A stretch of DNA of 62,278 nt from Nemertoderma westbladi (lineage: Eukaryota; Animalia; Xenacoelomorpha), in NCBI GenBank assembly GCA_032718475.1, contig JAUCBJ010002729.1, positions 1 to 62,278 on the forward strand, written 5' to 3'. This document shows positions 687 through 57,176 of the stretch, piece after piece. The stretch's first letter is position 1; the number at the start of each line of letters is the position of its first letter. A program made the translations under genes and the position numbers. The notes beneath the pieces were generated by a model. The model was not told the DNA's origin and ran no database searches. It saw only the letters and a list, made by a program, of their open reading frames with translations.

Positions 687-1484
687 CTGGAAATATACGA
701 GATGATATTGTGATTGAAGCATGTAGTTATAGATACGGTACACATATGGGTATATAATAAGGCTGCTGATTGGATTGGAGAGGGTTACAAATACACAAAA
801 TAGCACGTCACTGAAAAGTAAAACTAGATAGATCAACTACTTTCAGGAATAACATTAATTGATAGGAATTGATAGGGGGCAGGGGTAAGGATAGGGGGTT
901 GGGGGGGGGGGGGGGGTGGTAGGGATGGTATTTGAAGGACAATGGGCAGGATATTACTGTTACATACATACTCGATTTTTTTTAATTGTAACCTATTTTG
1001 TATGTTAATTTAGATTTGCTTAATAATTAGACTATATTATTTAGTAGATGATTTTTTAAAGTTTTCGATAACGAGGTTTTAGATGCGAGACTAGCGAGAC
1101 TACTTCTAACTTTAAAGGTAAAGTATATAACATAGATGTTATATATACTGTAGCTGCTATAATTTATAACAATTATTTACTTCTGATTGGTTGTCAATGC
1201 TGGAAATGCCAGCTTTCAACTTTCAAGTACGATAGAACATATGACTAGTGCATTTTTAAAGTTGAAAGTTGCATGTTGAAAAATGAAAGTTGACTGTTTA
1301 TGTGTGAACATCACCATAGGCTACAATATGTTCTATCTTTTAATTGAAAGTTGAAAGCTCATGTGTGATCAGGGCCTTACTGACCGAGTTTTATAACTAT
1401 GAACTGAGGAAGTTAAATTAAATAGACTTAAAACGGCTGGGGAAAGATTTGTAGATTTGTGATTCAGTTGATACATGAAATCGC

Positions 1485-7829: not shown

Positions 7830-8581
7830 TACCTGCTAAGGCTGCTTCTAGTGTTGGTCTTTTTACTAACTCCAGAAAGACCAACATTTTGACAGTTAAC
7901 TTTGAAAGTCCTCAGCAAGTCTCTGATCGGATGAGCATAAGCTCAAAGGAAGGTATGCTTGAGCATTTGGACGACTTCTGTTACCTGGGATCATGGATCC
8001 GGAAGTCAGGTGAGGATCTTCGAAAGGGAAAGGCATGGACAGCCTTTAATAGGCTTTCCAGGATTTGGAAGTCACCGAGAATTAATCGGAAACTTAAGGT
8101 CCGATTATTTAGAGCAGCAGTTGTTCCAGTACTTCTCTATGGGAGTCCATACTGGGCTCTAACTGCTGAGGACACAAAATCTCTGGATGGAACATTCACA
8201 AGAATGCTACACCGGGTTCATTGGGTCAAGTACAATGCACACATCTCCAACCAGACACTATATAACATTGGAGGTGTCTCATTGGTTCCCCCAAGCTTGA
8301 CACTAGAACAAAATCGCCTCCGCTTTGTAGGACATTGCTTTCGCCGTGAGGACCAGCCAGTTCATAATCTTGTACTTTGGCAGCCTCATGGAGTAAATAA
8401 GCATGGTGGGCAGCCCATGACTTTCTTGAGACGCATCTTAAAGGACACTGGCCTTGAAGATCCGGATGATCTAGCAAATGTAATGGGTGATAGGGAGTTG
8501 TGGAGGTGCAATTTTGTCGACAAGCTGGCACAGCATTCTTAAAAATGCAGCTGCAATGCACCATGCCGATCCTAGTAGTCG
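7830..8581 (+). mobile_element. 5'-truncated RTE-like LINE (family A) nested in host LINE
   Basis: RT C-terminus FCYLGSWI...LLYGS..W..RLRFVGHC; TAG-repeat tail; 14-bp TSD taaccaaggccttc at 7816-7829 and 8582-8595. Closely similar to 24603-25301. Confidence 0.9.
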
Positions 8582-8828
8582 TAACCAAGGCCTTCGATTC
8601 GGCGAACCATGAACTCCTTTGCCAGAAGCTGTCACAGTTTGGCTTTGGAGTCAGCAAATAGTTTATTGCTATATTATGGGCACTATTATTATCAATAAAC
8701 TATGTCTGTATCTGCATTGAAGTCACACAGGAATCACACAGGAACACAGAAACATGGCCCAAACCATTGTTATAGTCCAAGGAGACCAACTCTCGCCTCT
8801 TCTTTTTAGTATTTTTGTATCTGAATTA

Positions 8829-9409
8829 CTACTACTACTACTACTAGGTCGAGCGAACTCGGACAGTGGAAATGAGATCCTTCCAGACTTCCCAATTCTC
8901 CATAATTGTCGCAATTTCGTTTCTCCCAAGTTCAGTATCCCGTTCAAGTTGATCTATATATGTTATGGCCGTTCGTCCATGGCTACGCTTTCCTTGAGTT
9001 GGTTGCCAGAAAAGTAGATCTGGTATGACCTCATCTTTACTTCGCCAGCAATGCCCACTGAATCTTAATGTGCATGCACGGAGGGTGGTTGATACAGGTG
9101 GTATTGTATCATAAAGCTCGGCGTTTGTCATGTGTTGTCTCCAGATGATGTTTAGGGCTGCCCTTAGTAGTCTTGTATAGCAACCATCAATTCATCGTTA
9201 AAGTGATTTAGTCAGTGTCCAGGTCTCACCCCCATATAAAAATACACTTTCCACTGTGGCTCGAAATAACTTAGTCTTCAGGTGCCTGGAGAGATCTGAT
9301 TTCCAGATGGTATCCATTTTTGATAGAGCTACCCAAGCCTTTGCTTTCCTAACTTCTATGTCCTTTTTGCTACTCTCTATCCATGATCCAAGGTACTGGA
9401 AGTCGTCAA
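8829..9409 (-). mobile_element. 5'-truncated RTE-like LINE (family B) nested in host LINE
   Basis: DDFQYLGSWI...FLYGGETWTLT; (TAG)n tail seen as (cta)n at 8829-8846; 12-bp TSD gtatctgaatta at 8817-8828 and 9410-9421. Same family as 15790-17253. Confidence 0.9.
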
Positions 9410-10424
9410 GTATCTGAATTAACGGCAATTATCATCACTGTTTCCGTATCTGTATTCATTGTCATGTACGCTGATGACCTGGCTATAGTTTGAATCTTTG
9501 AATCGGCTGTTAAATTCCATAATAGAGGCCGAGTATCATGACAACCAACAAGTTAAGTTTGTGAACTCCTTTGAATATTTAGGTGTGATCCTCTCAACAA
9601 AGAATGGTAGTAGTGGCCACTTTCAGCACCTTTACAAGAACGGAGTTGTCAGCTGCATCCATATAGCGATTAAAGTGGACCTTTTGGCAAACCTCTTATG
9701 GAAGTCAGTTGTCCTCCCATCCATAACTTATGGATGCAATGTGTTTGTCAATTCCAACGATTTAGAAGGTCTTGATCACATAAAACGCATCCACGCCTTG
9801 TTCTGGAAGTATTTGTGTAGAATAAGTAAATTCACTTCCTCATTTGCCATACTCAACTACATCGATAACTATGTCGAACATGCGGGAACCTCAACGGATC
9901 TGAGCTGACTGTCAGGTTTTAGGCGCTGTTCAGCATCCCAGCTACTTTCAAACGGCAGCCACCATAGATTATGCGAGAACGAAAGTTGCTGGCGCCCGAC
10001 GGAACAATGTATGTTTTGGCTTTGCAGGAAACCAATACAAGTAGCGGAACACTATATTGCGTGCAGCGGTATCCCTCCATACAGTCCAGTCTCCATGCCT
10101 CCCTCTACCTGATGACACTTGAGAGAAACTCAACTATTAAATAGTTGAGTCCCCCCCCCCCCCCCCCCCTTTATTTTACAGTATAATATTATATATTTTA
10201 GTTTAAGTTTTAATTTTCGAAACCCAAATGTTTGGTGATAAAGTTTAATATTCAAATCTCAGAGTTTAGGATTTATTTTTTGTTGTTGGTTGTTTGTTTG
10301 ATGTCTACATTAAGTTTTGTGATAATTTAAATGTTTCTAGATGACAAGTTTATACTCTATCATGACCAATGACGATAAAAATTGACCTGTGTTTTCTCAA
10401 TTTGTATGACCAGAATGCACAGCA

Positions 10425-13400: not shown

Positions 13401-15067
13401 CCCGCACTAACTAACCTCCCTCGTGCTGCCAACACGTATGCATTGGGTTCATATAGGCAGTGTGCATCCCATTCAACCCGCACTAACTAACCTCCCTCGT
13501 GCTGCCAACACGTATGCATTGGGTTCATATAGGCGGTGTGCATCCCATTCAACCCGCACTAACTAACCTCCCTCGTGTTGCCAACACGTATGCATTGGGT
13601 TCATATAGGCGGTGTGCATCCCATTCAACCCGCACTAACTAACCTCCCTCGTGCTGCCAACACGTATGCATTGGGTTCATATAGGCAGTGTGCATCCCAT
13701 TCAACCCGCACTAACTAACCTCCCTCGTGCTGCCAACACGTATGCATTGGGTTCATATAGGCGGTGTGCATCCCATTCAACCCGCACTAACTAACCTCCC
13801 TCGTGCTGCCAACACGTATGCATTGGGTTCATATAGGCAGTGTGCATCCCATTCAACCCGCACTAACTAACCTCCCTCGTGCTGCCAACACGTATGCATT
13901 GGGTTCATATAGGCGGTGTGCATCCCATTCAACCCGCACTAACTAACCTCCCTCGTGTTGCCAACACGTATGCATTGGGTTCATATAGGCGGTGTGCATC
14001 CCATTCAACCCGCACTAACTAACCTCCCTCGTGTTGCCAACACGTATGCATTGGGTTCATATAGGCGGTGTGCATCCCATTCAACCCACACTAACTAACC
14101 TCCCTCGTGCTGCCAACACGTATGCATTGGGTTCATATAGGCGGTGTGCATCCCATTCAACCCGCACTAACTAACCTCCCTCGTGTTGCCAACACGTATG
14201 CATTGGGTTCATATAGGCGGTGTGCATCCCATCCGACCCGCACTAACTAACCTCCCTCGTGTTGCCAACACGTATGCATTGGGTTCATATAGGCGGTGTG
14301 CATCCCATTCAACCCGCACTAACTAACCTCCCTCGTGTTGCCAACACGTATGCATTGGGTTCATATAGGCGGTGTGCATCCCATTCAACCCGCACTAACT
14401 AACCTCCCTCGTGTTGCCAACACGTATGCATTGGGTTCATATAGGCGGTGTGCATCCCATTCAACCCGCACTAACTAACCTCCCTCGTGTTGCCAACACG
14501 TATGCATTGGGTTCATATAGGCGGTGTGCATCCCATCCGACCCGCACTAACTAACCTCCCTCGTGTTGCCAACACGTATGCATTGGGTTCATATAGGCGG
14601 TGTGCATCCCATTCAACCCGCACTAACTAACCTCCCTCGTGTTGCCAACACGTATGCATTGGGTTCATATAGGCGGTGTGCATCCCATTCAACCCGCACT
14701 AACTAACCTCCCTCGTGTTGCCAACACGTATGCATTGGGTTCATATAGGCGGTGTGCATCCCATTCAACCCGCACTAACTAACCTCCCTCGTGTTGCCAA
14801 CACGTATGCATTGGGTTCATATAGGCGGTGTGCATCCCATTCAACCCGCACTAACTAACCTCCCTCGTGTTGCCAACACGTATGCATTGGGTTCATATAG
14901 GCGGTGTGCATCCCATTCAACCCGCACTAACTAACCTCCCTCGTGTTGCCAACACGTATGCATTGGGTTCATATAGGCGGTGTGCATCCCATTCAACCCG
15001 CACTAACTAACCTCCCTCGTGTTGCCAACACGTATGCATTGGGTTCATATAGGCGGTGTGCATCCCA
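10425..15067. repeat. 76-bp minisatellite array, 61 copies, whose unit is the last 56 nt of TRPA1 exon 2 plus the first 20 nt of the intron
   Basis: cactaactaa recurs from 10441 to 15001 (exactly 60x76). Minus-strand unit ...ggatgcacaccgcctatatgaacccaatgcatacgtgttggcaacacgagggag|gttagttagtgcggg. Confidence 0.97.
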
Positions 15068-15399
15068 ATGTCTTCCAGACGACCCCCACACATAACCGCG
15101 AGATGCATTATATTCCGTTCCTGTTGGTCTCTCAGTCGGAAGTTGGCCCCTCTGTACAGTAGGACCCGGGCAGTAGACCAGCATCCCTTACTGACTGCCA
15201 GTAGCAACGGGGTCCTCGATTCGCAGTCCACACCGTCGATATCCGACCCCTGTTCCAAGAGAAACTCCACCAGATCTACGAAGTCGAACATCGCAGCTCG
15301 ATGAATCGGTAACATATCCTGAACGTCGCCGACACTCAACAAATCTTTCAGTTCCATTTCTTTCATTTTGAACATCAATTCCACTATTTCGAATGCGCC
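15012..15399 (-). CDS. TRPA1: TRPA1-like channel, second coding exon (ankyrin repeats)
   Basis: Acceptor ttttccag|GGC at 15400/15399 (phase 0) gives LACSQ|GAFEIVELMF. Contains PIHRAAMFD..DLVEFLLEQG and TPLLLAVSKGCW...RNIMHLAVMCGGRL, as in TRPA1. Donor GAG|gttagt at 15012/15011 is phase 1, compatible with the next exon. Confidence 0.88.
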
Positions 15400-15789
15400 C
15401 TGGAAAACAATATATTACATATAAATAATATTATAACATCATCTATGATATTATGTTAGTTTTAATTAATTAGTTCATAGTAACTCAGGGAATTATAAAT
15501 GGACATCGGAATATGAAAATAATGGGTTTAAAACAATGATTGATAATATATTATGTTATTATTGTGAATATTTTACATAATGTTTTTTGGATTTGCGTTG
15601 CGTATGTTTGGGATTTGTATATAATTATGGTTTGAATGTTGTATAATTTGAATGAGTGATAAATTTGATTGGTATGTTCGGTTGCAGGACTGAATATTTT
15701 CCTTGAAGACTTTTTCTATTCATAAGGGATGATTAATGGTGAGTAAAATGAAATTTGATGAATGTGAGGTGAAATGAAATTCAATTGGT

Positions 15790-17253
15790 TGAGTAGGAAT
15801 TCTGCTAAGCCCATTTGCACTTAAGACCCTAAACAACATCGAATCTATAAATTCCAGGGTTATGATCGCAACATTTGATGGGAATCCCAAGGCAACAGTT
15901 ATATGTTGCTACAGTCCAACCAATGCCTCAGAACCAGAACAAGCAGTCAAGTTTTATGAAGAACTGACTGGACTTATAAAGGACATTCCGAAACACAATG
16001 TTAAAGTCATTGCTGGTGACCTGAATGCCCAAATTGGCCCAGAAGACATCAAGGGTTACACCTATAACACCAGTTCTAAGTATTTCGACCAAGTAGATCA
16101 ACAATAGCTCAGATACTTGCACTACGGAGACTGATTGAAAGAATTAAGTCAAAGAATCTCCCCGCAGTCATGACTTTTGTGGACTTCAAGAAGGCATTCG
16201 ACTCCATCCATAGAGGTAAAATGCTTGAAATCCTAAGAGCTTATGGAATACCAGAAGTAATTGTTGCTGGCATTGGATTGTTATATTGTGACACAGAAGC
16301 GCAGGTACTCTCACCAGATGGTGAAACTGAGTTTTTCTCAATCCTGGCTAGCGTACTGCAAGGTGACACATTAGCACCATTACTATTTGTAATTGTGCTG
16401 GATTACGCAATGAGGACGGCCACAAAGGGTGAAGATCTCGGATTCACACTTCAAGAACGCAGAAGTAGTAGATATCCGGCAACTACAGTCACAGACACCG
16501 ACTTTGCGGATGACATCGCCCTGCTCTTTAATACGCTAGCAGATGCACAGCTTCTACTAAATAAAGTGGCGAGGGCTGCTAAGGAGGTTGGATTGCATAT
16601 AAATGCTACAAAGACCGAATTCATGACCTGTAATGTTGATGGAAATTTGACAACCATTGATAATAATCAACTAAGGAAGGTCGATGACTTCCAGTACCTT
16701 GGATCATGGATATAGAGTAGCAAAAAGGACATAGAAGTTAGGAAAGCAAAGGCTTGGGTAGCTCTATCAAAAATGGATACCATCTGGAAATCAGATCTCT
16801 CCAGGCACCTGAAGACTAAGTTCTTTCAAGCCACAGTGGAAAGTGTATTTTTATACGGGGGTGAGACCTGGACACTGACTAAATCACTTGAACAACGAAT
16901 TGATGGTTGCTACACAAGACTACTAAGGGCAGCCCGAAACATCAGCTGGAGACAACACATGACAAACGCCGAGCTTTATGGTACAATACCACCTGTATCA
17001 ACCACCCTCCGTGAACGCAGATTAAGATTCAGTTGGCACTGCTGGCGAAGTAAAGACGAGGTCATACCAGATCTACTTCTCTGGCAACCAACTCATAGAA
17101 AGCGTAGTCATGGACGACCCGCCATAACATATAGATCAACTTGAAAGGGATACTGAACTTGGGAGAAACGAAATTGCGACAACTATGGAGAATCGGGAAG
17201 CCTGGAAGGATCTCATTTCCACTGTCCGAGTTCGCTCAACCTAGTAGTAATAG
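15790..17253 (+). mobile_element. Internally deleted RTE-like LINE (family B) with endonuclease and RT remnants
   Basis: APE motifs CYSPTN and IAGDLNAQIG; RT motifs FVDFKKAFDS, QGDTLAPLLF and FADD; in-frame stops; TAG-repeat tail. Candidate TSD aaatgaaatt (two possible left copies near 15745 and 15773; right copy at 17256-17265). Confidence 0.9.
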
Positions 17254-24494: not shown

Positions 24495-27400
24495 TAGATT
24501 ACGGGACACGTTTTGGTCTGACACCAGGGATCTGTATCTCATATCAAATAAAATAATAAAATAATAAATAATAAATAAAAAAAAATAATAAAAAAAAAAA
24601 AATTTGACAGTTAACTTTGAAAGTCCTCAGCAAGTCTCTGATCGGATGAGCATAAGCTCAAAAGATGGTATGCTTGAGCATGTGGATGGCTTCTGTTACC
24701 TGGGATCATGGATCCGGAAGTCAGGTGAGGACCTTCGAATATGTAAGGGAAAGGCATGGGCAGCCTTGAATAGGCTTTCCAGGATTTGGAAGTCACCGAG
24801 AATTAATCGGACACTTAAGGTCCGATTATTCAGAGCAGCAGTAGTTACAGTACTCCTCTATGGGAGTCCATGCTGGGCTCTAACTGCTGAGGACACCAAA
24901 TCTCTGGATGGCACATTCACAAGAATGCTACGCCGGGTTCATTGTGTCAAGTACAATGCACACATCTCCAACCAGACACTATATAACATTGGAGGTGTCT
25001 CATTGGATCCCCCAAGCTTGACACTAGAACAAAATCGCCTCCGCTTTGCAGGACATTGCTTTCGCCGTGGGGACCAGCCAGTGCATAATCTTGTACATTG
25101 GCAGCCTCATAGAGTGAATAAGCATGGTGGACAGCCCATGACTTTCTTGAGACGCATCTTAAAGGACACTGGCCTTGAAGATGCGGATGATCTAGCAAAT
25201 TTCATGGGTGATAGGGAGTTGTGGCGGTGCAATTTTGTCGATAAGCCGGCACAGCATTCTTAAAAATGCAGCTGCAATGCAGCATGCCGATCCTAGTAGT
25301 AGTATCTCATATAGATTACGGGACACGTTTTGGTCTGACACCAGGGATCTGTATCTCATATAGATTATGGGACACGTTTTGGTCTGACACCAGTTATCTG
25401 TATCTCATATAGATTACGGGACACGTTTTGGTCTGACACCAGTTATCTGTATCTCATATAGATTACGGGACACGTTTTGGTCTGACACCAGGGATCTGTA
25501 TCTCATATAGATTACGGGACACGTTTTGGTCTGACACCAGGGATCTGTATCTCATATAGATTACGGGACACGTTTTGGTCTGACACCAGGGATCTGTATC
25601 TCATATAGATTACGGGACACGTTTTGGTCTGACACCAGTTATCTGTATCTCATATAGATTAAGGGACACGTTTTGGTCTGACACCAGGGATCTGTATCTC
25701 ATATAGATTACGGGACTCGTTTTGGTCTGACACCAGTTATCTGTATCTCATATAGATTACGGGACACGTTTTGGTCTGACACCAGGGATCTGTATCTCAT
25801 ATAGATTACGGGACACGTTTTGGTCTGACACTAGGGATCTGTAACTCATATAGATTACGGGACACGTTTTGGTCTGACACCAGGGATCTGTATCTCATAT
25901 AGATTACGGGACACGTTTTGGTCTGACACCAGTTATCTGTATCTCATATAGATTACGGGACACGTTTTGGTCTGACACCAGGGATCTGTATCTCATATAG
26001 ATTACGGGACACGTTTTGGTCTGACACCAGGGATCTGTATCTCATATAGATTACGGGACACGTTTTGGTCTGACACCAGGGATCTGTATCTCATATAGAT
26101 TACGGGACACGTTTTGGTCTGACACCAGGGATCTGTATCTCATATAGATTACGGGACATGTTTTGGTCTGACACCAGGGATCTGTATCTCATATAGATTA
26201 CGGGACACGTTTTGGTCTGACACCAGGGATCTGTATCTCATATAGATTACGGGACACGTTTTGGTCTGACACCAGGGATCTGTATCTCATATAGATTACG
26301 GGACATGTTTTGGTCTGACACCAGGGATCTGTATCTCATATAGATTACGGGACACGTTTTGGTCTGACACCAGGGATCTGTATCTCATATAGATTACGGG
26401 ACATGTTTTGGTCTGACACCAGGGATCTGTATCTCATATAGATTACGGGACACGTTTTGGTCTGACACCAGGGATCTGTATCTCATATAGATTACGGGAC
26501 ATGTTTTGGTCTGACACCAGGGATCTGTATCTCATATAGATTACGGGACACGTTTTGGTCTGACACCAGGGATCTGTATCTCATATAGATTACGGGACAC
26601 GTTTTGGTCTGACACCAGGGATCTGTATCTCATATAGATTACGGGACATGTTTTGGTCCGACACCAGGGATCTGTATCTCATATAGATTACGGGACACGT
26701 TTTGGTCTGACACCAGGGATCTGTATCTTATATAGATTACGGGACATGTTTTGGTCTGACACCAGGGATCTGTATCTCATATAGATTACGGGACCCGTTT
26801 TGGTCTGACACCAGGGATCTGTATCTCATATAGATTACGGGACACGTTTTGGTCTGACACCAGGGATCTGTATCTCATATAGATTACGGGACACGTTTTG
26901 GTCTGACACCAGGGATCTGTAACTCATATAGATTACGGGACACGTTTTGGTCTGACACCAGTTATCTGTATCTCGTATAGATTACGGGACATGTTTTGGT
27001 CTGACACCAGGGATCTGTATCTCATATAGATTACGGGACACGTTTTGGTCTGACACCAGGGATCTGTATCTCATATAGATTATGGGACACGTTTTGGTCT
27101 GACACCAGTTATCTGTATCTCATATAGATTACGGGACACGTTTTGGTCTGACACCAGGGATCTGTATCTCATATAGATTACAGGACATGTTTTGGTCTGA
27201 CACCAGGGATCTGTATCTCATATAGATTATGGGACACGTTTTGGTCTGACACCAGTTATCTGTATCTCATATAGATTACGGGACACGTTTTGGTCTGACA
27301 CCAGGGATCTGTAACTCATATAGATTACGGGACACGTTTTGGTCTGACACCAGGGATCTGTATCTCATATAGATTATGGGACATGTTTTGGTCTGACATA

Positions 27401-27516: not shown

Positions 27517-28497
27517 GAATGTAGTTTTGGCCCATTTGGGAAGTTTAGTAAGGATTTATCATTTGCTTGCAAATTTGTATAAAAGATAATTCTCCATCGA
27601 AAATGTTCCCCTAAGAAAACGGAACAGCTGCAGCAATAGAATAACAACTGAATGAACATCCACAAAACTCAATAAGAGCAATATTTTTTATCAAGATTGC
27701 TAAATAGTAGAAATGAGCAATGATATTATTGATTTTCTGAATGTTATAACCAAACAAACAATATGCTTGTGAAGAAAATGTTATTTATTACCTAACCATA
27801 CAAACCTGGCATTAAGTGCGCCTACAGGTTATGATAGTATATTTCGGGGGTTTATATTACAGCTTAACTTATGTATTTAGTTGCAAGTATAAGATGGCAA
27901 TGTTAGCGTAAACATCTAGTAAAATAATTTAAATAATTAATGCGTTGCAGCTTATAACCACCTGCTGAAACAAAAACTGCTTCTATGTGCGGGAGAGAAT
28001 TGAATTGAATTTACATATATACATTATATTAATTATTAACATATTTTGTTGGTGGATAGATATTGGAGTGGGGGGGATGGGGAGGGGGGTCAGTGGCGAT
28101 GTAATGTGAACGTCAAAACTAGAAGATCTCCTTTCCGCGAATAGATGATCAATCTGCACCTGTCACGCACTGTCATCGCTGCAGCATCTGTGGATATGGT
28201 CGATGACCCTGCGTGGATCCGACACTAGACACTAGCGGGTTATTTCCTAATTAATCGGGAGTGGGGATAGTTGACCGAGAGAGACGTGACCAGGGTGAAC
28301 GCAATCACGAATTTGGCAGCAGAATCTCTATCATCTACGAAAACGTCACAACTTAAATTGTAAGAAAATAAGTGGAGGTTCAAAAGGGCGAAGTTATTCT
28401 ACCTCAGAATACTTATATAATGAAACATCTAACATCGATAAAGTTAGTGAGAGTTAACATGAGATGCGGTTAATTTAATATTTAATTTCTCACTTAC

Positions 28498-29604
28498 TTG
28501 AGAACAGGCTAGATGTAGCGCCGTGGATTTGTCGCTTTGTTGGGCACGGACGTTAGCACCATTGATGAGACACAACCTCACAACATCTGGATCCCCACCA
28601 GACACAGCAGTGTGCAGCGGAGAATTATTCTGATTGTCTATAACTTCTAACAGATCGTTTCTAGTGAAACCCTTAGATTCAGCGAGTTCTAGCAGAGCAG
28701 TCAATGCTTTTGCAGCCCCTGTACCGGCTGCGGAGTGCATCACTGTATTCCCTTGGTGGTCTTTAGCGGATAAGTCAGCACCATGCTGCAATAAGAGTTG
28801 AGTAAGTTCCAAGTTGTCTTTTGCCGCGGCAATGTGTAATGCTGTGGTGCCATCAGACCCAGCAATGTTCACATTTACGGGGACCAAAGAGTCGAGTATT
28901 GCCTTCATTGTGTCCACATCACCATCTTCTGCAGCTCCATGGATTGGGGCACTGCCTTCTTTATTGAAGGTCGTTGTTGAAGCACCTGCATTTACTAGGA
29001 ACTCAACTCCTGCCACGGCATTGTGTTTAACCGCCCAATGTAGCGGAGTGTTAGAATCATCATCAATAGCATTGATATCGGCATTGCAATCGATCATAAA
29101 GTCCATCACATTGAGGTTGGAATGAGCTGCTGCGTGATGCAATGGTGTTGCTCCTTTGTGATCTCTCAGAAGGATGCACCGGGGATCCTTGTTGTATCTT
29201 TGGGTAAACTCACTTACTGTACCGCTCTCTGCCAGTTTCATTAGGTCAACTATCTTCTTGTTCAACTTCTTCCCATGTCGCGATTCGTCATCTTCATCGT
29301 CACGTTTCTTTGCTTCATTTGCTTCATCCTCATAGACGTATCGCATCTTCCATAAATTAAAATGACGTTTCCTCCTATCTGGAACTTTGTCTGGGGAACT
29401 TCCCACAAACACTGCAGTTTTCCTGGCTCGTCTGAGACCCCCGTTCGCGTTGATGATGTTTTCATCATTTCCATCATAGATGTGGGTGGCCCCATTGCTA
29501 AAGGAGACAAAGTATGGATTGCCTTCGTGTATATCCGTTGTTGTGGCTATCGTTGAGGTTGACAAAGATACTGAACCCCTGCGCTTATCTCGACCAAATA
29601 CCAT
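28498..29604 (-). CDS. TRPA1: TRPA1-like channel, first coding exon (N-terminal extension plus ~7 ankyrin repeats)
   Basis: ATG at 29604 in ACCATGG context; repeated TPLH/TALH/SPLH ankyrin motifs; ends STALHLACSQ at canonical donor CAA|gtaagt (28498/28497). Transmembrane region is not in the window, so the assignment rests on ankyrin-region similarity. Confidence 0.85.
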
Positions 29605-30733
29605 GGTCACGAGTTCTCAGTAACAGACTTTTCTGGTTATAAATATTTCCTTTAACTTATTTTGCCTTGGGCAACATTATTTCTTAATTTCTTCATAACA
29701 ACAGATAGTTATAATAAAATCTCGCATGTATTGTTATTAATATTAATAATATTCACTCCAATAAATAACCCCTCTGCTGTTTAAACAATAATTTACAATG
29801 TCAGATATTTTGCATATGGCATCTCAAAGTTATTGCTATGGTAAGTGAAGCTTAGGGTTCCGCAAAATGCATAACTATTACTTGATTAGCTGGCTACATT
29901 TTATTATAGGCGTTGTGTCTAATATTAGTTGTACAAAGCACAATGAGTGGTAGAGCAAGCAGCCAATGGAACGTTTAAAAGCAGAAAGCATCCCAAGAGT
30001 GGTGGTCAATATTAGTTAAGTGCACACAAATTGAGAGAGAGAGTTGCGCTCTAACTCTCCAGGAATAAACTCGTTTTTGACAGGAACATTTCTGAACTAT
30101 TGATTGACGTTTCCTCTCCTCTGATATCTAACTAATATTACTTACTCTGTGTGTGACAAGGCGCCATGAACTACACTATTTGTTATTGATTCTTTGCAAC
30201 AGGAACAATCATTTACTATCGATGATTTTGAAATGACATATGACTTGTAGGTGATGATACGGTTGGGGTAACGGCCTGTGAAAATTTAGTGCTAACTTTT
30301 CAATTAATCTACTGTATGTTAATCTGAAAGTATTTATTTTGATGGAACAAAGAATAAATAATTGCAGAAAGCAGGCCTATGTGAAAGATTAATAAAAAAA
30401 TAAATAAAATACATAGTGGTAAGTGGTAAGTAAACTAGAAGGTAGAAGCATCTTAGTTTAAAGTAAATCGCTGATAAGATAAGCAGAATTACACAAATTT
30501 ATTTTTTATACCGATACAATAAGTGTTTCTTTCATAAGACTAAATCGAAAAAAAAACTATTGAGATCAGCAATAGAATACCACCTTGATATGATCCACAA
30601 ATGAGTTACAATTGAATTACAAATACCGGTAGCTCAATATTAACTAATACTCTTCATATTGTATTACTGTAAACCTCGATCTAATGTCAGACAATATTTC
30701 CAATTCAGGAAATATAAATAATCGCATCATACT

Positions 30734-47740: not shown

Positions 47741-48667
47741 TGATATACAGTACCAGTTAGACAAGTTGCCACTGCCCAGTTTACATTCCATCGGTACTTA
47801 TATTAAATTTTACTTTTTTATCATTGTAATTACAATTTTTACCTAATTACATATCAGGTTCTTTGTTTTTAACATTTTCATATGAAGTGCGCAGTATTTT
47901 TTTCTTATTTTTCTTATTTTTTATTTGTTTTTTAATATTATTGCACACATCGAAGTTTTTACCGTATCGTTTTTAATAGAAAAATTTTAATCATAACGTG
48001 CCAACTAAATTTTTTAATGTTTATTTTTTATTGCAATATGTAAAATTATCAACATTGTGGTTTTTACTTACAATCTACGTCGTATAATTTTGAACCCCAC
48101 TATCTGATTATTGTTTATTTATGTTTGTAATACTGTATGTTATATGTTTGTACCTATAATGTATGTAACTTACCTACAGTACTTAATAAAAGAAATATAC
48201 GCATATGCGTAGAATCCTTATAGATTTGCCAGTTCATTGTGTTATATAAGAATTTATGTGCTGTATGTATTAATTTTTATTTGCATTTGGCGTATTAAAC
48301 TAAACTAAACTGATACAATATAGTTTCTATCTCGCTATGTACTGTATAATATGTCGATTACTATCAGTATCACAATAGGCCTAAATCCTTAATAATAATA
48401 ATAATATAATACTGTAATATAATAACCACTAGTAATATATCACCTACATACAATACATACCTGTAATAAAGGAGTTGTAATCACCTACAGCAATAGGCAG
48501 ATATGCACTGGTCAGCTGGTTAAATACAGGGGACCCCCCTTAATGCTGATTTCAGAATCATAACTCTTTCAGTCTTTAGTTGTTGTTAACGTAGCGCTGT
48601 TGCGTGACATTTCATGCATTACAGCACAGCAGCATTACTGCATTACATAGGAGATACCAGATACTGA

Positions 48668-48820
48668 TTATTGATAGTAACAATGTGTTAGCAAGCTGTA
48701 TTTTTCGAGGTGTTTTGTTATTATACATTTATTATAGGAAGGGATCTAGGGGTCTTTACCTCGAATGATAAGTTTTTTTTACCGAAAGACCCCTAGATCC
48801 CTTCCTATAATAAATGTATA
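48668..48820 (-). mobile_element. Short fold-back fragment of the tRNA-hammerhead element family, ~200 bp upstream of the ACLY ATG
   Basis: 48668-48784 matches the reverse complement of 55208-55331; 48785-48823 is an inverted copy of part of it. Flanked by 14-bp direct repeat ataccagatactga (48654-48667, 48821-48834). Confidence 0.88.
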
Positions 48821-49024
48821 ATACCAGATACTGACAGACTGATGTAGCTGTGTAGGGCGTAGCGTAGGCAGTAGGCGGTAGGCCTACCTAATTCGTAATT
48901 TTAGGCAATTCTGCAATTGTCAGATTGTTTTATATTTCAGTAGGCCTATTTCAGTATTTATTACTACCCCGTAACAGGCAGAGAGGTGACAGGGTAAGTT
49001 TCTACCGGTAATAAACTGTAAACA

Positions 49025-50476
49025 ATGTCAGCCAAGGCGATCTACGAAAGCGACGGTAAAGTGATCCTATCGAAACATTTATCTTCGGTTTCTACAATCG
49101 GAACAGTTGTTTCGATACACCCCGAAACGAATCTCGATGTACTTCCGTTCGAACAGACCTGGTTGACCTCCACCAAGTTGGTAGTGAAAGTCGATCAGTT
49201 GATTAAACGCCGCGGTAAACTGGGCCTGCTGGCGGCGGATGTGAACTGGGAGACGGCGAAGTCGTGGATCCGTGAACGCATGCATCAACGGTTGACGGTT
49301 GGTAACACGACGGGAGTGCTGAAACACTTTATAGTAGAACCGTTTGTGGAACACCAACCGGAGGACGAGTTCTATCTGTGCGTGTACTCGAGTCGGAACA
49401 ATGACACCGTGTTGTTCCATCACGAAGGCGGCATCGATGTGGGGGATGTTGAGAGCAAAGCGAAGCACATAGACGTGATGGTGGACGAACCGTTGACTAA
49501 GAACCTTTTAGAATCCAGTTCGTTATTCAGTAAACTCCGACCAGCGATTCGTCCCGTTTTGGTCGCTTTTGTTGAGACTTTGTACCGCGTTTACGTCGAC
49601 CTTCACTTCACCTACCTGGAGATCAACCCGCTGGTTGTCCGTGGGGATCGCGTTTACGTGCTGGACTTGGCTGCTAAGTTGGATCAGACAGCGGAGTATC
49701 TGTGTCGTGGGGCGGCCTGGGGTGTCGGACCGGTCTGCTTCCCGCCCCCGTTCGGACGCGAGGCCTACCCCGAGGAGGCCTACATCGCCGAGATGGACAG
49801 TAAAACCGGCGCGTCGCTCAAACTGACGTTGTTGAACCCGCGCGGGAAGATCTGGACGATGGTGGCCGGGGGCGGGGCCTCTGTGATCTACAGCGACACT
49901 ATATGCGACCTCGGGGGGGCCGGCGAGCTGGCAAACTACGGCGAATATAGCGGCGCCCCCAGCGAGAGTCAAACCTACGAGTACGCGAAAACCATACTGA
50001 AACTAATGACTCGCGAGAAACGAGACGACGGCAAGGTCCTTATCATCGGGGGCGGCATCGCCAACTTCACGAACGTGGCGGCGACCTTTAAGGGGATCGT
50101 CCGCGCACTCAAGGAGTTTGAGTCGCAGCTCCGGGAGCACCGCGCTTCTGTGTTTGTGCGTCGCGGGGGTCCCAACTTCCAGGAAGGACTCCGCGTTATG
50201 CGCGAGTTGGGCGCCACTCTCGGAGTTCCCATGCACGTGTTCGGCACCGAGACCCACATGACTGCCGTGGTTGCCATGGCGTTGGGATCCCGGGAGATCC
50301 CCATGCTCCCGCCCCCCGCGCAGCCGGTGACCGCCAACTTCCTCCTCTCTAGTCCCGGAGCCTCGGGGCTGTCCAAGTCTCGCGCCAACTCCGCGGTAGA
50401 GCCGAGCCGTAAAGCGATACAAACGGAGGTGTTTAACGCGGGAACTAAGGCGTTTATATGGGGGATGCAGCCAAAG
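49025..50476 (+). CDS. ACLY: ATP-citrate lyase, coding exon 1 (ATP-grasp and citrate-binding domains, 484 codons)
   Basis: MSAKAIYE start; [42 protein letters not shown] and RRGGPN motifs; donor AAG|gtaagg at 50476/50477 after IWGMQPK. Confidence 0.96.
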
Positions 50477-52118
50477 GTAAGGGATTGGGGGATACAGATT
50501 AATGGTAAGGGATTGGGGATGCAGCCTTATGGTAAGGGATGGGGGATGCAGCCTAATGGTAAGGGGTGGGGGATGCAGCCTAATGGTAAGGTATGGGGGA
50601 TGCAGCCTAATGGTAAGGGGTGGGGGATGCAGCCTAATGGTAAGGGATTGGGGGATACAGATTAATGGTAAGGGATGGGGGATGCAGCCTAATGGTAAGG
50701 GATGGAGGATGCAGCCAAATGGTAAGGGATGGGGGATGCAGCCAAATGGTAAGGGATGGGGGATGCAGCCCAATGGTAAGGGATGGGGGGTGCAGCCCAA
50801 TGGTAAGGGATGGGGGATGCAGCCTAATGGTAAGGGATGGGGGATGCAGCCAAATGGTAAGGGGTGGGGGATGCAGCCTAATGGTAAGGGATGGGGAATG
50901 CAGCCAAAGGTAGGGGATGGGGGTGCAGCCTAATGGTAAGGGATGGGGAATGCAGCCAAAGGTAGGGGATGGGGGTGCAGCCTAATGGTAAGGGATGGGG
51001 GATGCAGCCCAATGGTAAGGGATGGGGGATGCAGCCTAATGGTAAGGGATGGGGGATGCAGCCAAATGGTAAGGGGTGGGGGATGCAGCCTAATGGTAAG
51101 GGATGGGGGATGCAGCCAAATGGTAAGGGGTGGGGGATGCAGCCTAATGGTAAGGGATGGGGGATGCAGCCAAATGGTAAGGGATGGGGGATGCAGCCCA
51201 ATGGTAAGGGATGGGGGATGCAGCCAAATGGTAAGGGGTGGGGGATGCAGCCAAATGGTAAGGGGTGGGGGATGCAGCCTAATGGTAAGGGATGGAGGAT
51301 GCAGCCAAATGGTAAGGGATGGGGGATGCAGCCCAATGGTAAGGGATGGGGGATGCAGCCCAATGGTAAGGCGGTAATGGGTGGGGGATGCAGCCCAATG
51401 GTAAGAGATGGGGGATGCAGCCCAATGGTAAGAGATGGGGGATGCAGCCCAATGGTAAGAGATGGGGGATGCAGCCTAATGGTAAGGGATGGGGGGTGCA
51501 GCCCAATGGTAAGGGATGGGGGATGCAGCCCAATGGTAAGGGGTGGGGGATGCAGCCTAATGGTAAGGGATGGGGGATGCAGCCTAATGGTAAGGGATGG
51601 GGGATGCAGCCCAATGGTAAGGGGTGGGGGATGCAGCCTAATGGTAAGGGATGGGGGATGCAGCCAAATGGTAAGGGATGGGGGATGCAGCCAAATGGTA
51701 AGGGATGGGGGATGCAGCCCAATGGTAAGGGGTGGGGGATGCAGCCTAATGGTAAGGGATGGGGGATGCAGCCCAATGGTAAGGCAGTAAGGGGTGGGGG
51801 ATGCAGCCTAATGGTAAGGGATGGGGGATGCAGCCCAATGGTAAGGCAGTAATGGATGGGGGATGCAGCCCAATGGTAAGGGATGGGGGATGCAGCCTAA
51901 TGGTAAGGCAGTAAGGGGTGGGGATGCAGCCTAATGGTAAGGGATTGGGGATGCAGCCTAATGGTAAGGGATTGGGGATGCAGCCTAATGGTAAGGGATT
52001 GGGGATGCAGCCTAATGGTAAGGGGTGGGGGATGCAGCCCAATGGTAAGGGATGGGGGATGCAGCCTAATGGTAAGGGATGGGGGATGCAGCCTAATGGT
52101 AAGGGATTGGGGATGCAG
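50459..52118 (+). repeat. 27-bp G-rich minisatellite array, ~60 copies, derived from the ACLY exon 1 end plus splice donor
   Basis: Unit tgggggatgcagcc(t/c/a)aatg|gtaaggga vs exon junction tgggggatgcagccaaag|gtaaggga. Confidence 0.96.
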
Positions 52119-52615
52119 GACTTTTTAACCTTAATTAAAACTTTTTATCAGCATCTCATTATATAACACGCATTTGATCTCTAACTTAAATATCTACATT
52201 TTAATTACTATTTATAGATTAATAATTAATATTTTAATATTCAACTTTAACTTTGAATAGCTTTTAATTTAATTAATTAATTTAATAAATTAGTCTGACA
52301 TTGCCTTAGAGTATATTAGAGAGCGCTTTCATACCAGAAATAATTATATTTCGTGTGATTTGATTTGCATTTTGACTTACTTGGTACTGTGAATGCCGCC
52401 TAAAACAGTTCGTTCCGATTAATAAAATAAAAAAATATTTATTTTTTATTTTATTTATTTTTATAGTTTATTTATAAATATTATTTTTTAGGGTAACATT
52501 ATTTAAGGTAAAGTGATACTAATTGATTAAATTATTAAAACTCTACCTGGTTGACGGAGGTCTGCATTGTCTATTACAGTCAGTTATCTATATTTCTGTA
52601 AATCTCTGGTTTCAG

Positions 52616-54406
52616 GCGGTTCAAGGAATGTTGGACTTCGACTACGTTTGTTCCCGTAAGTCGGCGAGCGTTGCAGGAATGATCTACCCATTTACCGGCG
52701 ACCACAAACAGAAGTTCTACTGGGGCCATAAGGAGATTCTCATACCTGTCTACAAGGAGATGGCCGCCGCGATGTCCCAACACCCGTTGGTAGACACGAT
52801 CGTGAGTTTCGCTTCGTTACGGAGCGCGTACGAGTCGACCGTGGAAGCGATGTCCTACCCCCAGATACAGAGCATCGCAATAATAGCGGAGGGAATCCCG
52901 GAGAACCTCACGAGGAGGTTGATAAAACTCGCCAACTCTAAGGGAGTCAGTCTCATAGGCCCCGCTACAGTCGGCGGGATAAAACCCGGATGTTTCAAGA
53001 TCGGGAACACCGGCGGCATGTTGGATAACATCCTCGCGTCCAAGTTGTACCGGCCCGGGTCCGTAGCCTACGTGTCGCGATCGGGGGGGATGAGCAACGA
53101 GTTGAATAATATAATAGCGCGGACGACCAACGGGGTTTACGAGGGAGTAGCGATCGGAGGCGACCGATACCCGGGGTCCACCTTCCTCGATCACATACTG
53201 CGGTACGAGGCGGACCCCGCGGTTAAACTCATCGTGTTCCTGGGGGAGGTTGGCGGCGTCGAGGAGTACTCGATAGTGGAGGCGGTCCGAACCGGACGGG
53301 TCGGTAAACCGGTGGTCGGCTGGTGCATCGGGACCTGCGCGACCATGTTCGGCTCGGACGTCCAGTTCGGGCACGCGGGCGCCTCGGTAGGGGGCGCTGC
53401 TGAGACCGCGACCGCCAAGAACGAGGCGTTGCGCTCCGTCGGGGTTATCGTTCCGAGTAGTTTCGACGCGTTGGGCGAGGCCGTTCAGTCGGTGTACAAC
53501 GGTCTGGTCGCTAGAGGCGTGGTGGTGCCCCAGGAGGAGGCGCCCCCGCCCACGGTGCCCATGGACTACTCGTGGGCGCGGGAGTTGGGCATCATCCGGA
53601 AACCCGCCTCGTTTATGACGACCATCTGCGACGAGCGCGGCGAGGAGTTGGTCTACGCCGGGATGCCGATAACCCAGGTGATCAAGGAGGACCTCGGCAT
53701 CGGCGGGGTCCTCAGTCTGCTCTGGTTCCAACGGCGTCTCCCCGGGTACGCCTGTAAGTTCATGGAGATTTGTTTGATGGTGACCGCGGACCACGGGCCG
53801 GCTGTATCCGGGGCGCACAACACCATCGTCTGCGCGCGCGCCGCCAAGGATTTGGTGTCTTCCTTGACTTCCGGGTTGTTGACCATCGGGGAGCGATTCG
53901 GAGGCGCGTTGGACGCCGCCGCTAAGCAGTTCTCGCAGGCCTACGACGCCGGTACCAGTCCCAACGAGTTCGTTAACCAAATGCGGAAGGATCGCAAACT
54001 CATTATGGGCATCGGACATCGGGTTAAGTCGCTCAACAACCCGGATAAACGTACCGAAATACTTAAAGAGTTCGCTAAATCCCAGTTCCCGTCCACGCCG
54101 CTCATCGATTACGCATTGGAAGTCGAGAAAATAACGACGAGTAAAAAGTCGAACCTAATCCTCAACGTGGACGGCCTTATCGGGGTCGCGTTCGTGGATC
54201 TCCTGCGGACCTCGGGGTGTTTCACCGCCGAGGAATCCAACGAATACATCAACATCGGCGCTCTCAACGGGATATTCGTTCTGGGTCGCAGTCTGGGCTT
54301 TATCGGACATTATCTCGACCAGAAGAGATTAAAGCAAGGATTGTACCGGCACCCCTGGGACGATATCAGTTACGTACTGCCGGAAAACATCAACGAGACT
54401 GAGTGA
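52616..54406 (+). CDS. ACLY: ATP-citrate lyase, coding exon 2 (CoA-binding, phosphohistidine and citrate-synthase-homology domains)
   Basis: Acceptor ggtttcag|GCG, phase 0, gives WGMQPK|[10 protein letters not shown]. Contains catalytic [28 protein letters not shown] and LYRHPWDDI; TGA at 54404-54406. Spliced protein is ~1080 aa. Confidence 0.96.
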
Positions 54407-54437: not shown

Positions 54438-54771
54438 TACGCGTCGCGCCAAACATTCAATAACATCCTTTATGTTTCTCACCAAAATTGGCCAAAACGG
54501 GTGTAAATTTTTCCAAAAAAATTGTTCTCCAGAATATAGTAAACCCATATATTTTCTGAAAGCTCTTGATGTCAGGAATTTCATTTATTATAGGAAGGGA
54601 TCTAGGGGTCTTAACCTCGAATGATAAGTTTATTTTACCGAAAATAACTTATCTTTTATTGACGCAATTGTAGGACTAATCCCATCACATGCGTACTTTT
54701 TTAACCGGGTAGTGTACAAATTTAGGAATCGCGTAATTTTTTCTTGAAATTAATATCTCATATCTCTCCAA

Positions 54772-54814
54772 ACCACGTACGCGTTTCGACCTTACTGGGT
54801 CTCATCAGCGTGGT
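54772..54814 (-). ncRNA. Minimal type I hammerhead ribozyme (inverted copy)
   Basis: Exact reverse complement of 55032-55074. Its tRNA-like head keeps the B box (54818-54828) but is truncated before the A box. Confidence 0.85.
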
Positions 54815-54973
54815 GTCGGATTCGAACCTGGGACCTCGAGGTGGAAGCCGAGACTACAACCTTGCCAGATCTTCAAGACTTGCCAACACATTGTTACTAT
54901 CAATAATCAAAAAAATCAGGGGCTAATAAAATGGCAGCTGGCTTTGAAATTAATACTCCATATCTCAAGAACC

Positions 54974-55035
54974 TGTGGCCTAGTGGTTGTAGTCTCGGCT
55001 TCTACCTCGAGGTCCCAGGTTCGAATCCGACACCA
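54974..55035 (+). promoter_or_regulatory. tRNA-derived internal Pol III promoter (A and B boxes)
   Basis: A box TGGCCTAGTGG at 54976-54986; B box GGTTCGAATCC at 55018-55028; anticodon-arm-like CTCGG-CTTCTAC-CTCGAG between them. No intact acceptor stem, so not a tRNA gene. Confidence 0.8.
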
Positions 55036-55074
55036 CGCTGATGAGACCCAGTAAGGTCGAAACGCGTACGTGGT
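55032..55074 (+). ncRNA. Minimal type I hammerhead ribozyme
   Basis: Stem I ACCACG/CGTGGT; core CTGATGA (55038-44); stem II GACC-cagtaa-GGTC; GAAA (55059-62); palindromic stem III ACGCGT; predicted cleavage after GUA at 55068. Confidence 0.87.
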
Positions 55075-57176
55075 TTGGAGAGATATGAGATATTAATTTC
55101 AAGAAAAAATTGCGGCGCGATTCCTAAATTTGTACACTACCCGGTTAAAAAGTACGCATGTGATGGGATTAGTCCTACAATTGCGCCAATAAAAGATAAG
55201 TTATTTTCGGTAAAATAAACTTATCATTCGAGGTTAAGAGTTAAGACCCCTAGATCCCTTCCTATAATAAATGTATAATAACAAACACCTCGATAAATAC
55301 AGCTTGCCAACACATTGTTACTATCAATAATAAAAAATCAGGAATTTCATGGGCACCATAGTCAAACACTTTTGCGCCGTTGAAAAAATTTATTTGGCAT
55401 TTAAAACGAGTCCGCCCAGTAATGATTTATCCGCCCTGTAATGATTTATCCGGCCTGTAATGCGTAACATTTCTTGGAAAATATATAATAATCCACGCCT
55501 ATAATTATATTTTGAATAGTGAAAGATATACTTTATTATATTAAACATATATATTACATAGTGAACGTGATCCCAGAGCCTCCCAGAGCCATACATTACC
55601 AGGGGCGGACACCATTACAGGGCCGGACACAGTGATTGATTATTGTTTATAAATAATTTGCAGTGTGGCTAACCTACATATTTCATACACCCCCTGAAAG
55701 CGCTGAGAAATACGAATCTGGCAGTATTTTTACTAACTCTTATCAGTAATTCTATCACTTTTAAATAGGCAATATCTCACCATTACAGGGGCCGGACAAA
55801 GTGATTGTCACATATACCTTGGTCTACTTAGAAGACGACTACTTGTACGGAAATTAATCAAATGCGATGAAATTTTAACGTGGTCATCCTGAGAAAATTT
55901 GCTTTCAAATTACATTTACTTTTAGGATTGCTCTTAAAAAGTTAAGATGAAATGAGCACCATTACAGGGTCGGACATAAAAATTAGAAAAGTGTCGGACA
56001 CGATGTTAAATGCAGCTGTACGACACCAACTACATTGTACGTATACAAATACTGCTGAAAACGAATCTCTATTTATCCAGCTTTCTAACGATATGTTGGT
56101 TTACTGGATATGACCTTGGGGTTGGAATTTTCTAACAGTTTGTTCTACTAGTACTTTGGAACTGGGACATGTGAAAATGTCATTTTGACCATATTTTTGG
56201 CCATATTATGTTCTGCTACGGTAAGACATGATGTATGTTAGAGCTGAAATTAACTGTTAACATTAACTTTGAAGCCATCAACCACTTTCTAGAACCGCCA
56301 TAAACATAAGTTATGGCTTCAGGACACCCGTTTGGCCAATTTTGGTGAGAATGACCCTATGGTTTAATTTCGCTATTATTGTAATTCGATTCCCCAATTT
56401 TAAACTAATTATTTTTCGATTTATAATTATCGAGGGTTTCATTCTCAATTCGATATTTAACTTTGTAACCTTTCGAGTTTTAGGGCTTCGTTTGTAGTCG
56501 AATAGGGATTGATGTGGGATTTATCATTGATATTAGATTTGTTCTTTATTTATTGTTGGTTTTGCTTTCAGTGCAGATATCGATGAATTTGTGTACTCAG
56601 GGCATCATATCATGTTTGCGGTTTATCGGTATTGAGTTGAGAGCGATTAATATCAGCAGTTGAATCGGGATTACATTATCATCCCGAGTAGCAACCCGAG
56701 TATCGATATCAGCAATAATCTCTAATCAGCTGCAGTAAGAGGAGTTGTTTCGCATTTCCGCGTCGTAGAATATTATATTTCTGTTATCGGGTATAACTAA
56801 TGCTTTTATGTAAGTTGTATTGGTAATAAATTAATTGTTAATTACTATTTATATAATAGGCCATGTTATAATATCGTCCATTCTAATATTATTGTTCATA
56901 TTTTATTAGAATTAGTTGGGTTAACTTAGTAATGAACTATTAATAGTTTTATTCCTACAAATGTTTCCTAAATAAATATGACGATTTGTCACGAATATCT
57001 CGATTGCCGTTTATTTTGATTTGTTTGAGACTCCCTTCCCTCTTCAACGGTAAATTTTTGTTAGAAATATTTTAATATTTTCGACCGAATTTTTGGAATC
57101 GAATGTTATGAATAATTGATAGAGCATCCAATTATAAAATTTTCGGAAGTCATCTTAAAAATTGATCAACAATCAT

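Follow-up and report, generated by a model that had tools for sequence, protein, structure and literature searches.

A tRNA-headed hammerhead retroelement of Nemertoderma westbladi with insertions resembling those of Penelope-like elements

Introduction

In the Schistosoma repeats Sm-alpha and Sj-alpha, a promoter is followed by a hammerhead ribozyme, and the tandem units are described as being transcribed by Pol III and cut from multimers (PMC6765202). Their promoter was reported to be tRNA-derived (PMC2770079). Non-LTR retrozymes are likewise described as tandem units with type I hammerheads that give rise to circular RNAs, and Penelope-like elements (PLEs) were proposed as their partners (PMC7229834). 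According to the available text of PMC7761336, they seem to lack promoters and carry no motif that points to a partner. In a 2026 preprint, co-occurrence and pseudo-LTR (pLTR) homology are used to argue for an origin of retrozymes from PLEs (bioRxiv 10.64898/2026.07.22.740005). As far as the available texts go, the enzyme that moves animal hammerhead repeats, their transcription and the use of the circle as template are left open in all three sources.

For PLE insertions, an adjacent inverted and 5'-truncated pLTR, target-site duplications (TSDs) of 8-10 bp and an optional 31-bp tail were reported, and pLTR sequence was found to suffice for mobilisation in trans (PMC3846280). Elsewhere, the tail measures 30-40 bp and is often confined to one end (PMC8557442). 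With purified PLE protein, both DNA strands are nicked and extended at AT-rich sites, and synthesis begins at either of two internal positions of the RNA, by which the tail is defined; hammerhead cleavage was unneeded (PMC11167929).

The window analysed here was the whole stretch of 62,278 nucleotides of contig JAUCBJ010002729.1 (assembly GCA_032718475.1, forward strand). It carries a repeat family whose DNA offers candidate answers to these questions, namely an internal tRNA-type promoter and ends that match the two-site start shown for PLE protein in vitro. A literature search, mostly of open-access texts, returned no report in which a hammerhead element with a tRNA head is connected with insertions of the PLE footprint.

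Results

Anatomy of the unit

The plus-strand copy of the unit contains the following features.

54879-54920, plus strand: terminal redundancy, 5' copy, formed by the end of the preceding unit and matching 55303-55342
54921-54968, plus strand: pre-head segment belonging to the unit, with read depth equal to that of the hammerhead
54973-55035, plus strand: tRNA-derived head with A and B boxes, by its sequence a likely internal Pol III promoter
54976-54986, plus strand: A box within the head, by motif match
55018-55028, plus strand: B box within the head, by motif match
55026-55079, plus strand: type I hammerhead of canonical type; distal stem I and the B-box end overlap
55032-37/55069-74, plus strand: hammerhead stem I, 6 bp
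55038-44, plus strand: hammerhead core CUGAUGA, by descriptor match
55045-48/55055-58, plus strand: hammerhead stem II, 4 bp
55059-62, plus strand: hammerhead GAAA
55062-67, plus strand: hammerhead stem III, palindromic
55068/55069, plus strand: predicted cut at the GUA site
55080-55273, plus strand: non-coding, AT-rich body as far as the 'short' 3' zone (~55267-55280)
55274-55342, plus strand: optional 'tail' of ~50-65 nt, reaching the 'long' 3' zone (55330-55342)

An earlier, sequence-only reading of this locus had placed the two boxes, the hammerhead core, its stems and the GUA site at these positions, and all were recovered by descriptor and sequence. The A-B box pair occurred a single time on the two strands of the window and in none of 200 first-order Markov resamples (62 kb). 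For the hammerhead descriptor, two window matches were obtained (the plus copy and an inverted twin), with none in 200 Markov resamples. The terminal redundancy proposed between 54879 and 55303 was also verified: 54879-54920 and 55303-55342 were identical at 40 of 40 aligned bases with one 2-nt indel, at a period of 424 nt in the window copy. The same reading had seen no credible ORF. Inside the 766-bp insertion described below, no ATG ORF exceeded 36 aa, the single 105-aa stop-to-stop frame was without Pfam match, and the frame opened by an ATG within the hammerhead core closed after 15 codons.

The head was compared with a tRNA HMM built from 59 unique prokaryotic and phage tRNAs. The top match in the window was 54973-55035 (E 6e-5, 19.2 bits), a score reached by 0 of 300 shuffles. 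The head was not called as a tRNA by ARAGORN or the Rfam tRNA model; the HMM match, taken with the ARAGORN failure, points to a tRNA-derived head that no longer keeps the cloverleaf. At 55003, the anticodon position, the window copy is unlike the majority of read contigs.

In the Rfam scan of the window, no match was found at gathering score, and Hammerhead_1, which had been suggested as a check, was not reached. Hammerhead_HH9 scored 26.6 bits (E 3.5e-4) on both strands, below that model's cut-off of 52. With 6 bp in helix I and 4 bp in helix II, the ribozyme is of the 'canonical' metazoan type I as described in PMC4209133 and not of the PLE 'min-HHR' type, which corrects the earlier reference to minimal PLE-type hammerheads.

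Two insertions and two 3' zones

Features of the two insertions and of the surrounding DNA were as follows.

54476-56351, unstranded: host element of the main insertion, outside the unit, with 29-bp inverted ends at 54476-54504 and 56324-56351
54572-54584, unstranded: left TSD, 13 bp, last 3 nt also matching the element
54582-54861, minus strand: inverted 5'-truncated arm (= plus 54985-55273), extending from within the A box to the 'short' 3' zone
54772-54814, minus strand: second hammerhead, identical to the plus one
54862-54878, unstranded: linker of 17 nt where the inversion is joined; the sequence of 54861-67 recurs at 54879-85
55338-55350, unstranded: right TSD, 13 bp, first 5 nt also matching the element
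48654-48834, unstranded: second insertion, 167 bp, of inverted head-to-head build, with 14-bp duplications at 48654-67 and 48821-34
48668-48787, minus strand: minus arm of the second insertion (= 55205-55331), with tail
48786-48820, plus strand: plus arm of the second insertion (= 55243-55277), without tail

The main insertion of 766 bp thus consists of the plus copy and an inverted, 5'-truncated minus copy, placed head-to-head and flanked by 13-bp target duplications. The extent first given, 54879..55337, covers the plus copy; the inverted copy, the 13-bp duplication and the second insertion had been missed. Between the inverted arm and the plus copy, 276 of 279 aligned bases were identical, with 11 gap positions (3 base changes and 3 indels), and several private changes are carried by the plus arm. 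The duplicated 13-mer occurs exactly twice in the window, and a 13-mer was shared by random 30-nt window pairs in 3 of 200,000 trials. Two of the four public runs (X2, depth 14.8, 1 contig; X3, depth 123.7, 2 contigs) contained the joint of the empty site, 54571>55338, in which 13 letters are shared. Since this joint carries the 13 letters once, the 766 bp represent a single insertion. No read contig crossed the whole insertion in any run examined.

Read depth was raised on both flanks of the insertion, which belong to the host element, and 54476-56351 is a multi-copy element, likely a non-autonomous DNA transposon. X2 or X3, which carry the empty site, may be the source of the window itself.

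The long arm of the 766-bp insertion starts at 55337-42, crosses the full unit and an intact hammerhead cut site, and stops at the equivalent of 55303, after 1.1 units. From this stop, 30 nt are left to the unit position where the short arm begins. The short arm itself breaks off within the A box, with 15-20 nt missing to the expected Pol III start.

Inverted arms with a tail at one end only were found in both window insertions, which are the only two resolved in full. In both insertions, the outer ends are 3' ends with respect to the hammerhead strand, and they fall in two zones ~55 nt apart (55270-55280 and 55331-55342). At all four junctions, 3-5 nt are common to element and target. The arms of the 167-bp insertion overlap in 55243-55277, so that two RNAs or a multimer would be required, and not separate parts of one monomer. 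Tail (50-65 nt) and duplications (13-14 bp) both exceed the PLE values cited above. The insertions contain no LTR pair, and PBS and PPT were absent by eye.

Loose ends of the family in read contigs were filtered for at least 2 contigs and a median length of at least 100. Among the 18 rows listed of 582, all 7 that passed sit in the two 3' zones (54583, 54588, 55269 and 55280 in one; 55330, 55331 and 55332 in the other), with mixed flanks (agreement 0.43-0.62). The same 18 of 582 rows showed no multi-contig loose end at the head, and none of the 7 lay at the hammerhead cut.

Neither TSD-bounded insertion contains an ORF with RT plus GIY-YIG. For a partner PLE in the window, 55 of the 67 non-satellite frames of at least 75 aa were scanned, and no GIY-YIG or PLE-specific domain was found in these; the other 12 are alternative frames inside the exons of an ATP-citrate lyase (ACLY) gene. 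The domains detected were ankyrin, ACLY and LINE-type RT (RVT_1, DUF6451). The flanking ACLY gene was itself 77-79% identical to vertebrate proteins, which were the best among the 120 listed of 1797 matches, with scoring of the 7988 candidates that shared most words; this points to an invertebrate animal as host.

Copy number, tandem structure and alleles

Read contigs matching the region numbered 1596 in X1, 4094 in X2, 103 in X3 and 1 in X6. Summed depth in X1 and X2 was ~5e4-7e5 over the insertion versus at most 2.6e3 in the flanks; it is not itself a copy number, and from it the family is put roughly at thousands of copies. Depth over 54918-54991 was as great as over the hammerhead, so this pre-head stretch belongs to the unit.

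A head-to-tail joint, 55331>54911, was present in the DNA run X2, whose contigs also continue from 55342 back into 54921 sequence. The unit is therefore arranged head-to-tail in DNA, and its neighbours on both sides, in the window and in the contigs, are the unit itself; no array with two complete hammerheads in a row was observed. The read contigs contain numerous copies of the unit, with head-to-tail joints among them. One closed contig in X6 measures 441 nt, of which 411 nt make up the unit and 30 nt are overlap. A tandem DNA repeat yields an identical contig, so this one is no evidence for a circle or for transcription. Unit size was 424 nt in the window copy, 411 nt in the X6 contig and ~415 overall; the ~424 nt given before holds for the window copy and not for the family. 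In X3, two deep contigs, one of 1914 nt (depth 1031.5) and one of 600 nt (depth 511.7), match the unit over only 70-130 nt, differ from it at several points and then continue into other sequence; they are candidates for a partner PLE.

The 2-nt-short form of the redundancy is a family allele, the two letters at 54908 being absent at a depth of 11,142 of 74,088 in X1. The two redundancy copies of the 766-bp insertion thus bear distinct alleles of the family, and a multimer is favoured over a single circle as its template; the argument consists of one indel beside an A-run, where slippage or later mutation is possible.

Predicted RNA folds

Two hammerhead copies were predicted to cofold as a double hammerhead at -44.3 versus 2 x -18.0 kcal/mol, the dimer being the cofold minimum. 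In the monomer, the pair probability of stem III was 0, a value of little meaning because the folding program disallows its 2-nt loop. A predicted stem, 54943-54966/55078-55103, encloses head and hammerhead with a duplex energy of -24 kcal/mol, and the fold of 54935-55110 had a z of -5.6, with 0 of 200 shuffles as stable. As this stem pairs sequence before the A box with sequence after the cut, it would form solely in read-through RNA, the cut unit or a circle. The circular unit was predicted to fold at -106.6 kcal/mol (z = -4.2, 0 of 40 shuffles), a z due in part to the same stem.

Related sequences in metagenomes

A metagenome scan for a B box with a hammerhead core gave 36 loci. In two of these, L047 (a ~1012-bp tandem) and L043 (a closed contig of 1341 nt), both boxes, A and B, occur together with a full type I hammerhead whose stem III is palindromic. 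Their heads matched the tRNA HMM at E 5.6e-4 and E 0.026, respectively, each above 300 of 300 shuffles. In a BLAST of all 36 loci against the element, L047 was the sole match (31 nt, hammerhead only), and no similarity of L047 or L043 to the window was detectable outside head and ribozyme. The remaining 34 loci were set aside as phage tRNA-hammerheads, headless hammerheads or chance. A scan of viral contigs returned 14 loci, none of them related to the element.

Five hammerheads (window, L047, L043, L020 and L037) were aligned. Of the cells, 88% are paired, and both sides change in 8 of 12 pairs; as the five were picked by motif and stem I is partly misaligned in two rows, these values describe the fold and are not an unbiased test. 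Avoidance of Pol III terminators was also considered and rejected: T runs of at least 4 on the sense strand numbered 1, 0 and 0 in the window unit, L047 and L043, with P of 0.54, 0.59 and 0.46 by dinucleotide shuffles.

Discussion

Proposed mobilisation

The element is best read as non-autonomous and of the Sm-alpha or non-LTR retrozyme kind. On balance, we consider it probable that this is a high-copy, non-coding, tRNA-headed hammerhead retroelement that is transcribed by Pol III and inserted by a borrowed PLE endonuclease and RT. Transcription of the unit by Pol III is likely, given its internal boxes. From the PLE-like footprint of both insertions, which the earlier reading had missed and which is the strongest pointer to the mechanism, we infer mobilisation by a PLE protein, likely from uncut multimeric RNA. 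The sequence-only reading, which took the locus for a non-autonomous tRNA-headed hammerhead element copied from RNA longer than one unit, and which named Sm-alpha as precedent (PMC6765202), is borne out in both respects. Where it left the choice between circular and multimeric RNA, the differing redundancy alleles favour the multimer and the circle loses ground. The design of promoter plus hammerhead is already known from Schistosoma (PMC6765202), and the PLE footprint is added to it here.

The following course would account for the DNA. Pol III may initiate at the head of one tandem unit and read through to the next. Paired hammerheads could, as predicted, excise units as a dimer, and an excised unit, its ends folded together, could be ligated to a circle; this branch would be dispensable for insertion. 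PLE protein would nick both strands of AT-rich DNA 13-14 bp apart, as the footprint suggests. The nicked 3' ends, aided by 3-5 nt of microhomology, may then prime reverse transcription inside the RNA, in two zones ~55 nt apart and 200-270 nt downstream of the hammerhead. The expected product is two head-to-head arms within target duplications, one tailed and the other tail-less, which is the build seen in the DNA. An uncut Pol III transcript of roughly two units that is primed twice fits the large insertion.

Alternative explanations

The same element and PLE partner could have used a ligated circular monomer as template, with reverse transcription more than once round, which is the model proposed in PMC7229834. 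A long arm of 1.1 units in which the cut site is crossed intact would be expected of it, the stability of the predicted circular fold exceeded that of all 40 shuffles, and the stem between pre-promoter and post-cut sequence is modelled to keep the cut ends together. The redundancy copies with their different family alleles speak against one circle, and the short arm ends close to where transcription is expected to start, as it would on linear RNA. Moreover, the head-to-tail joint exists in X2 DNA, so a circle is unnecessary. A circular template is possible and is less favoured than the uncut multimer; as an account of the insertions we judge it unlikely.

A solo or truncated pLTR of an autonomous PLE with its own tRNA-like promoter would leave a footprint that matches PLE insertions, as found here, and the two deep X3 contigs, in which the unit gives way to other sequence, agree with this. 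It is an improbable source nonetheless: the unit is flanked by itself in window and contigs, the ATG in the hammerhead core leads to a stop after 15 codons, and the helix sizes are canonical and not those of the PLE min-HHR (PMC4209133).

More improbable still is the reading as an ordinary SINE of tRNA origin that a LINE has moved, with twin priming in the L1 style. The tRNA head and the 13-14-bp duplications would suit it, and fragments of LINE-type RT (RVT_1, DUF6451) lie in the window. However, the element is without poly(A) or simple-repeat tail and has two 3' zones, the sequence before the head is part of the unit, and the unit has no BLAST match to the LINE fragments of the window, which may lack their own 3' ends. 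Among the 18 rows listed of 582, multi-contig loose ends gave neither the fixed 5' start at the head nor the one tailed 3' end of a classic LINE-dependent SINE.

That the inverted pair arose at the DNA level (fold-back, MITE-like) or is an artefact of assembly, for which the lack of any contig across the whole insertion might speak, is very improbable in view of the empty site with a single duplication in two runs, the 3 bases and 3 indels by which the arms differ, and the independent second insertion of the same build with other breakpoints.

Significance

The known design is extended here by the PLE footprint and by two unrelated repeats from metagenomes that carry the same head; the latter suggest that the design is not limited to schistosomes. 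Redundancy alleles can tell circle from multimer, and for PLE enzymes, an RNA of 411 nt and high copy number would offer a test substrate of small size. A bolder reading, somewhat less likely than not, is a class of Penelope-dependent SINEs, widespread, hitherto unrecognised and repeatedly arisen in animals, of which Sm-alpha would be the first found. Its members may have their own Pol III promoter and be inserted by twin priming from uncut multimers at the two PLE start sites, with hammerhead and circle serving RNA accumulation and not insertion.

Comparison with known systems

With Sm-alpha and Sj-alpha, the element shares a promoter of tRNA origin that leads straight into a type I hammerhead, as well as tandem arrangement and very high copy number (PMC6765202, PMC2770079, PMC8490949). 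In both, the promoter lies at the 3' end of the cut unit and Pol III transcription is proposed. The sequence is different from theirs, judged from Rfam Hammerhead_1 not being reached, and the PLE-type footprint of the window element is unmentioned for Sm-alpha in the available texts.

Like the metazoan non-LTR retrozymes as described (PMC7229834, PMC7761336, bioRxiv 10.64898/2026.07.22.740005), the unit is tandem, non-coding and within 150-450 bp (411-424 nt, in head-to-tail copies), with a canonical type I hammerhead and GC below 50%. Further likenesses are TSDs above 4 bp (13 and 14 bp here), a strongly self-paired predicted circle and PLEs as proposed partners. The A and B boxes and the PLE footprint set it apart from them; the absence of promoters is presented in the available text of PMC7761336 as a trend and not a strict criterion. 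Because of its A and B boxes and the tRNA HMM match, the element was classed as a variant of non-LTR retrozymes.

An inverted 5'-truncated arm, a tail at one end, short TSDs and an AT-rich target are shared with EN+ PLEs (PMC3846280, PMC8557442, PMC11167929), as are two internal start zones downstream of the hammerhead. Unlike EN+ PLEs as described, the element has no RT-EN ORF, a tRNA-type head in place of a TATA/Inr pLTR promoter, a canonical and not a minimal hammerhead (PMC4209133) and a longer tail. The short junction matches seen here are unreported in the available text of the study with purified PLE protein (PMC11167929).

The Helenus and Ajax TRIMs are alike in that sequence derived from a small-RNA gene is found in a non-autonomous element other than a classic SINE; unlike the present element, those are LTR elements, for which the available text mentions no Penelope or hammerhead (PMC10886601). 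By the tests applied, the element is neither an autonomous PLE nor a classic SINE. It appears to work as Sm-alpha-type retrozymes do and to insert in the manner of a PLE.

Gene and repeat content of the window

An ATP-citrate lyase (ACLY) gene was adjoined by the multi-copy element that carries the main insertion of the unit, with 70 bp between the ACLY stop codon and the start of the element:

49022-54406: ATP-citrate lyase gene, two long ORFs
54476-56351: multi-copy element, with inverted ends of 29 bp and repeats of 18-19 bp in its interior

The stretch parting the two ACLY ORFs, likely a single intron, contained 1.66 kb of a 27-bp satellite (50458-52118). The multi-copy element is likely a non-autonomous DNA transposon. 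Elsewhere in the window, the following were located:

481-726, minus strand: ankyrin-repeat ORF
15010-15414, minus strand: ankyrin-repeat ORF
28447-29616, minus strand: ankyrin-repeat ORF
7599-9428, 16080-17141 and 24592-25260: LINE-type RT fragments (RVT_1, DUF6451), several and all of them broken

More than one third of the window was occupied by long satellite arrays, at least eight in number and of differing periods (21, 27, 40, 45, 46, 49, 56 and 76 bp). Satellite arrays also intervened between the ankyrin-repeat ORFs, which are possibly exons or paralogues.

Contigs sharing part of the unit

Among contigs of the public sequencing run X3, two deep ones (1914 nt, depth 1031.5; 600 nt, depth 511.7) each had 70-130 nt in common with the unit, with several differences, and then continued into other sequence. 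Both are candidates for a sister family of the unit or for its autonomous partner, the Penelope-like element (PLE) that would move it.

Hammerheads in viral and metagenomic loci

Hammerhead-like cores often lay approximately 2-20 nt downstream of tRNA genes of phages or bacteria:

L001-L014: viral contigs, tRNA then hammerhead core
L018, L021, L024, L025, L040, L044, L050: metagenomes, tRNA then hammerhead core

The loci were retrieved with a pattern that itself selected a T-loop with a hammerhead core after it. For the viral loci, tRNAs were called in 13 of 14 using ARAGORN and a type I hammerhead fold was obtained in 5 of 14 using a custom script. We take this arrangement to resemble the way in which HDV-like theta ribozymes process the 3' trailers of tRNAs.

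At three loci (L020, L026, L037), paired hammerheads spaced by approximately 200 bp were flanked by a Walker A-motif ORF, Rep/helicase-like as judged by eye, and an Asn-rich ORF. These may be rotifer Terminon-type elements.

Two unrelated repeats, tandem or closed, combined a tRNA head with a hammerhead as in the window unit:

L047, 886-1012: tRNA head and hammerhead, repeat of approximately 1.0 kb
L043, 785-930, minus strand: tRNA head and hammerhead, repeat of approximately 1.3 kb

Both contain motifs resembling CTCF sites. L043 additionally carried three telomere-like CCCTAA hexamers on the hammerhead strand, a feature reported for EN-minus PLEs (PMC8557442).
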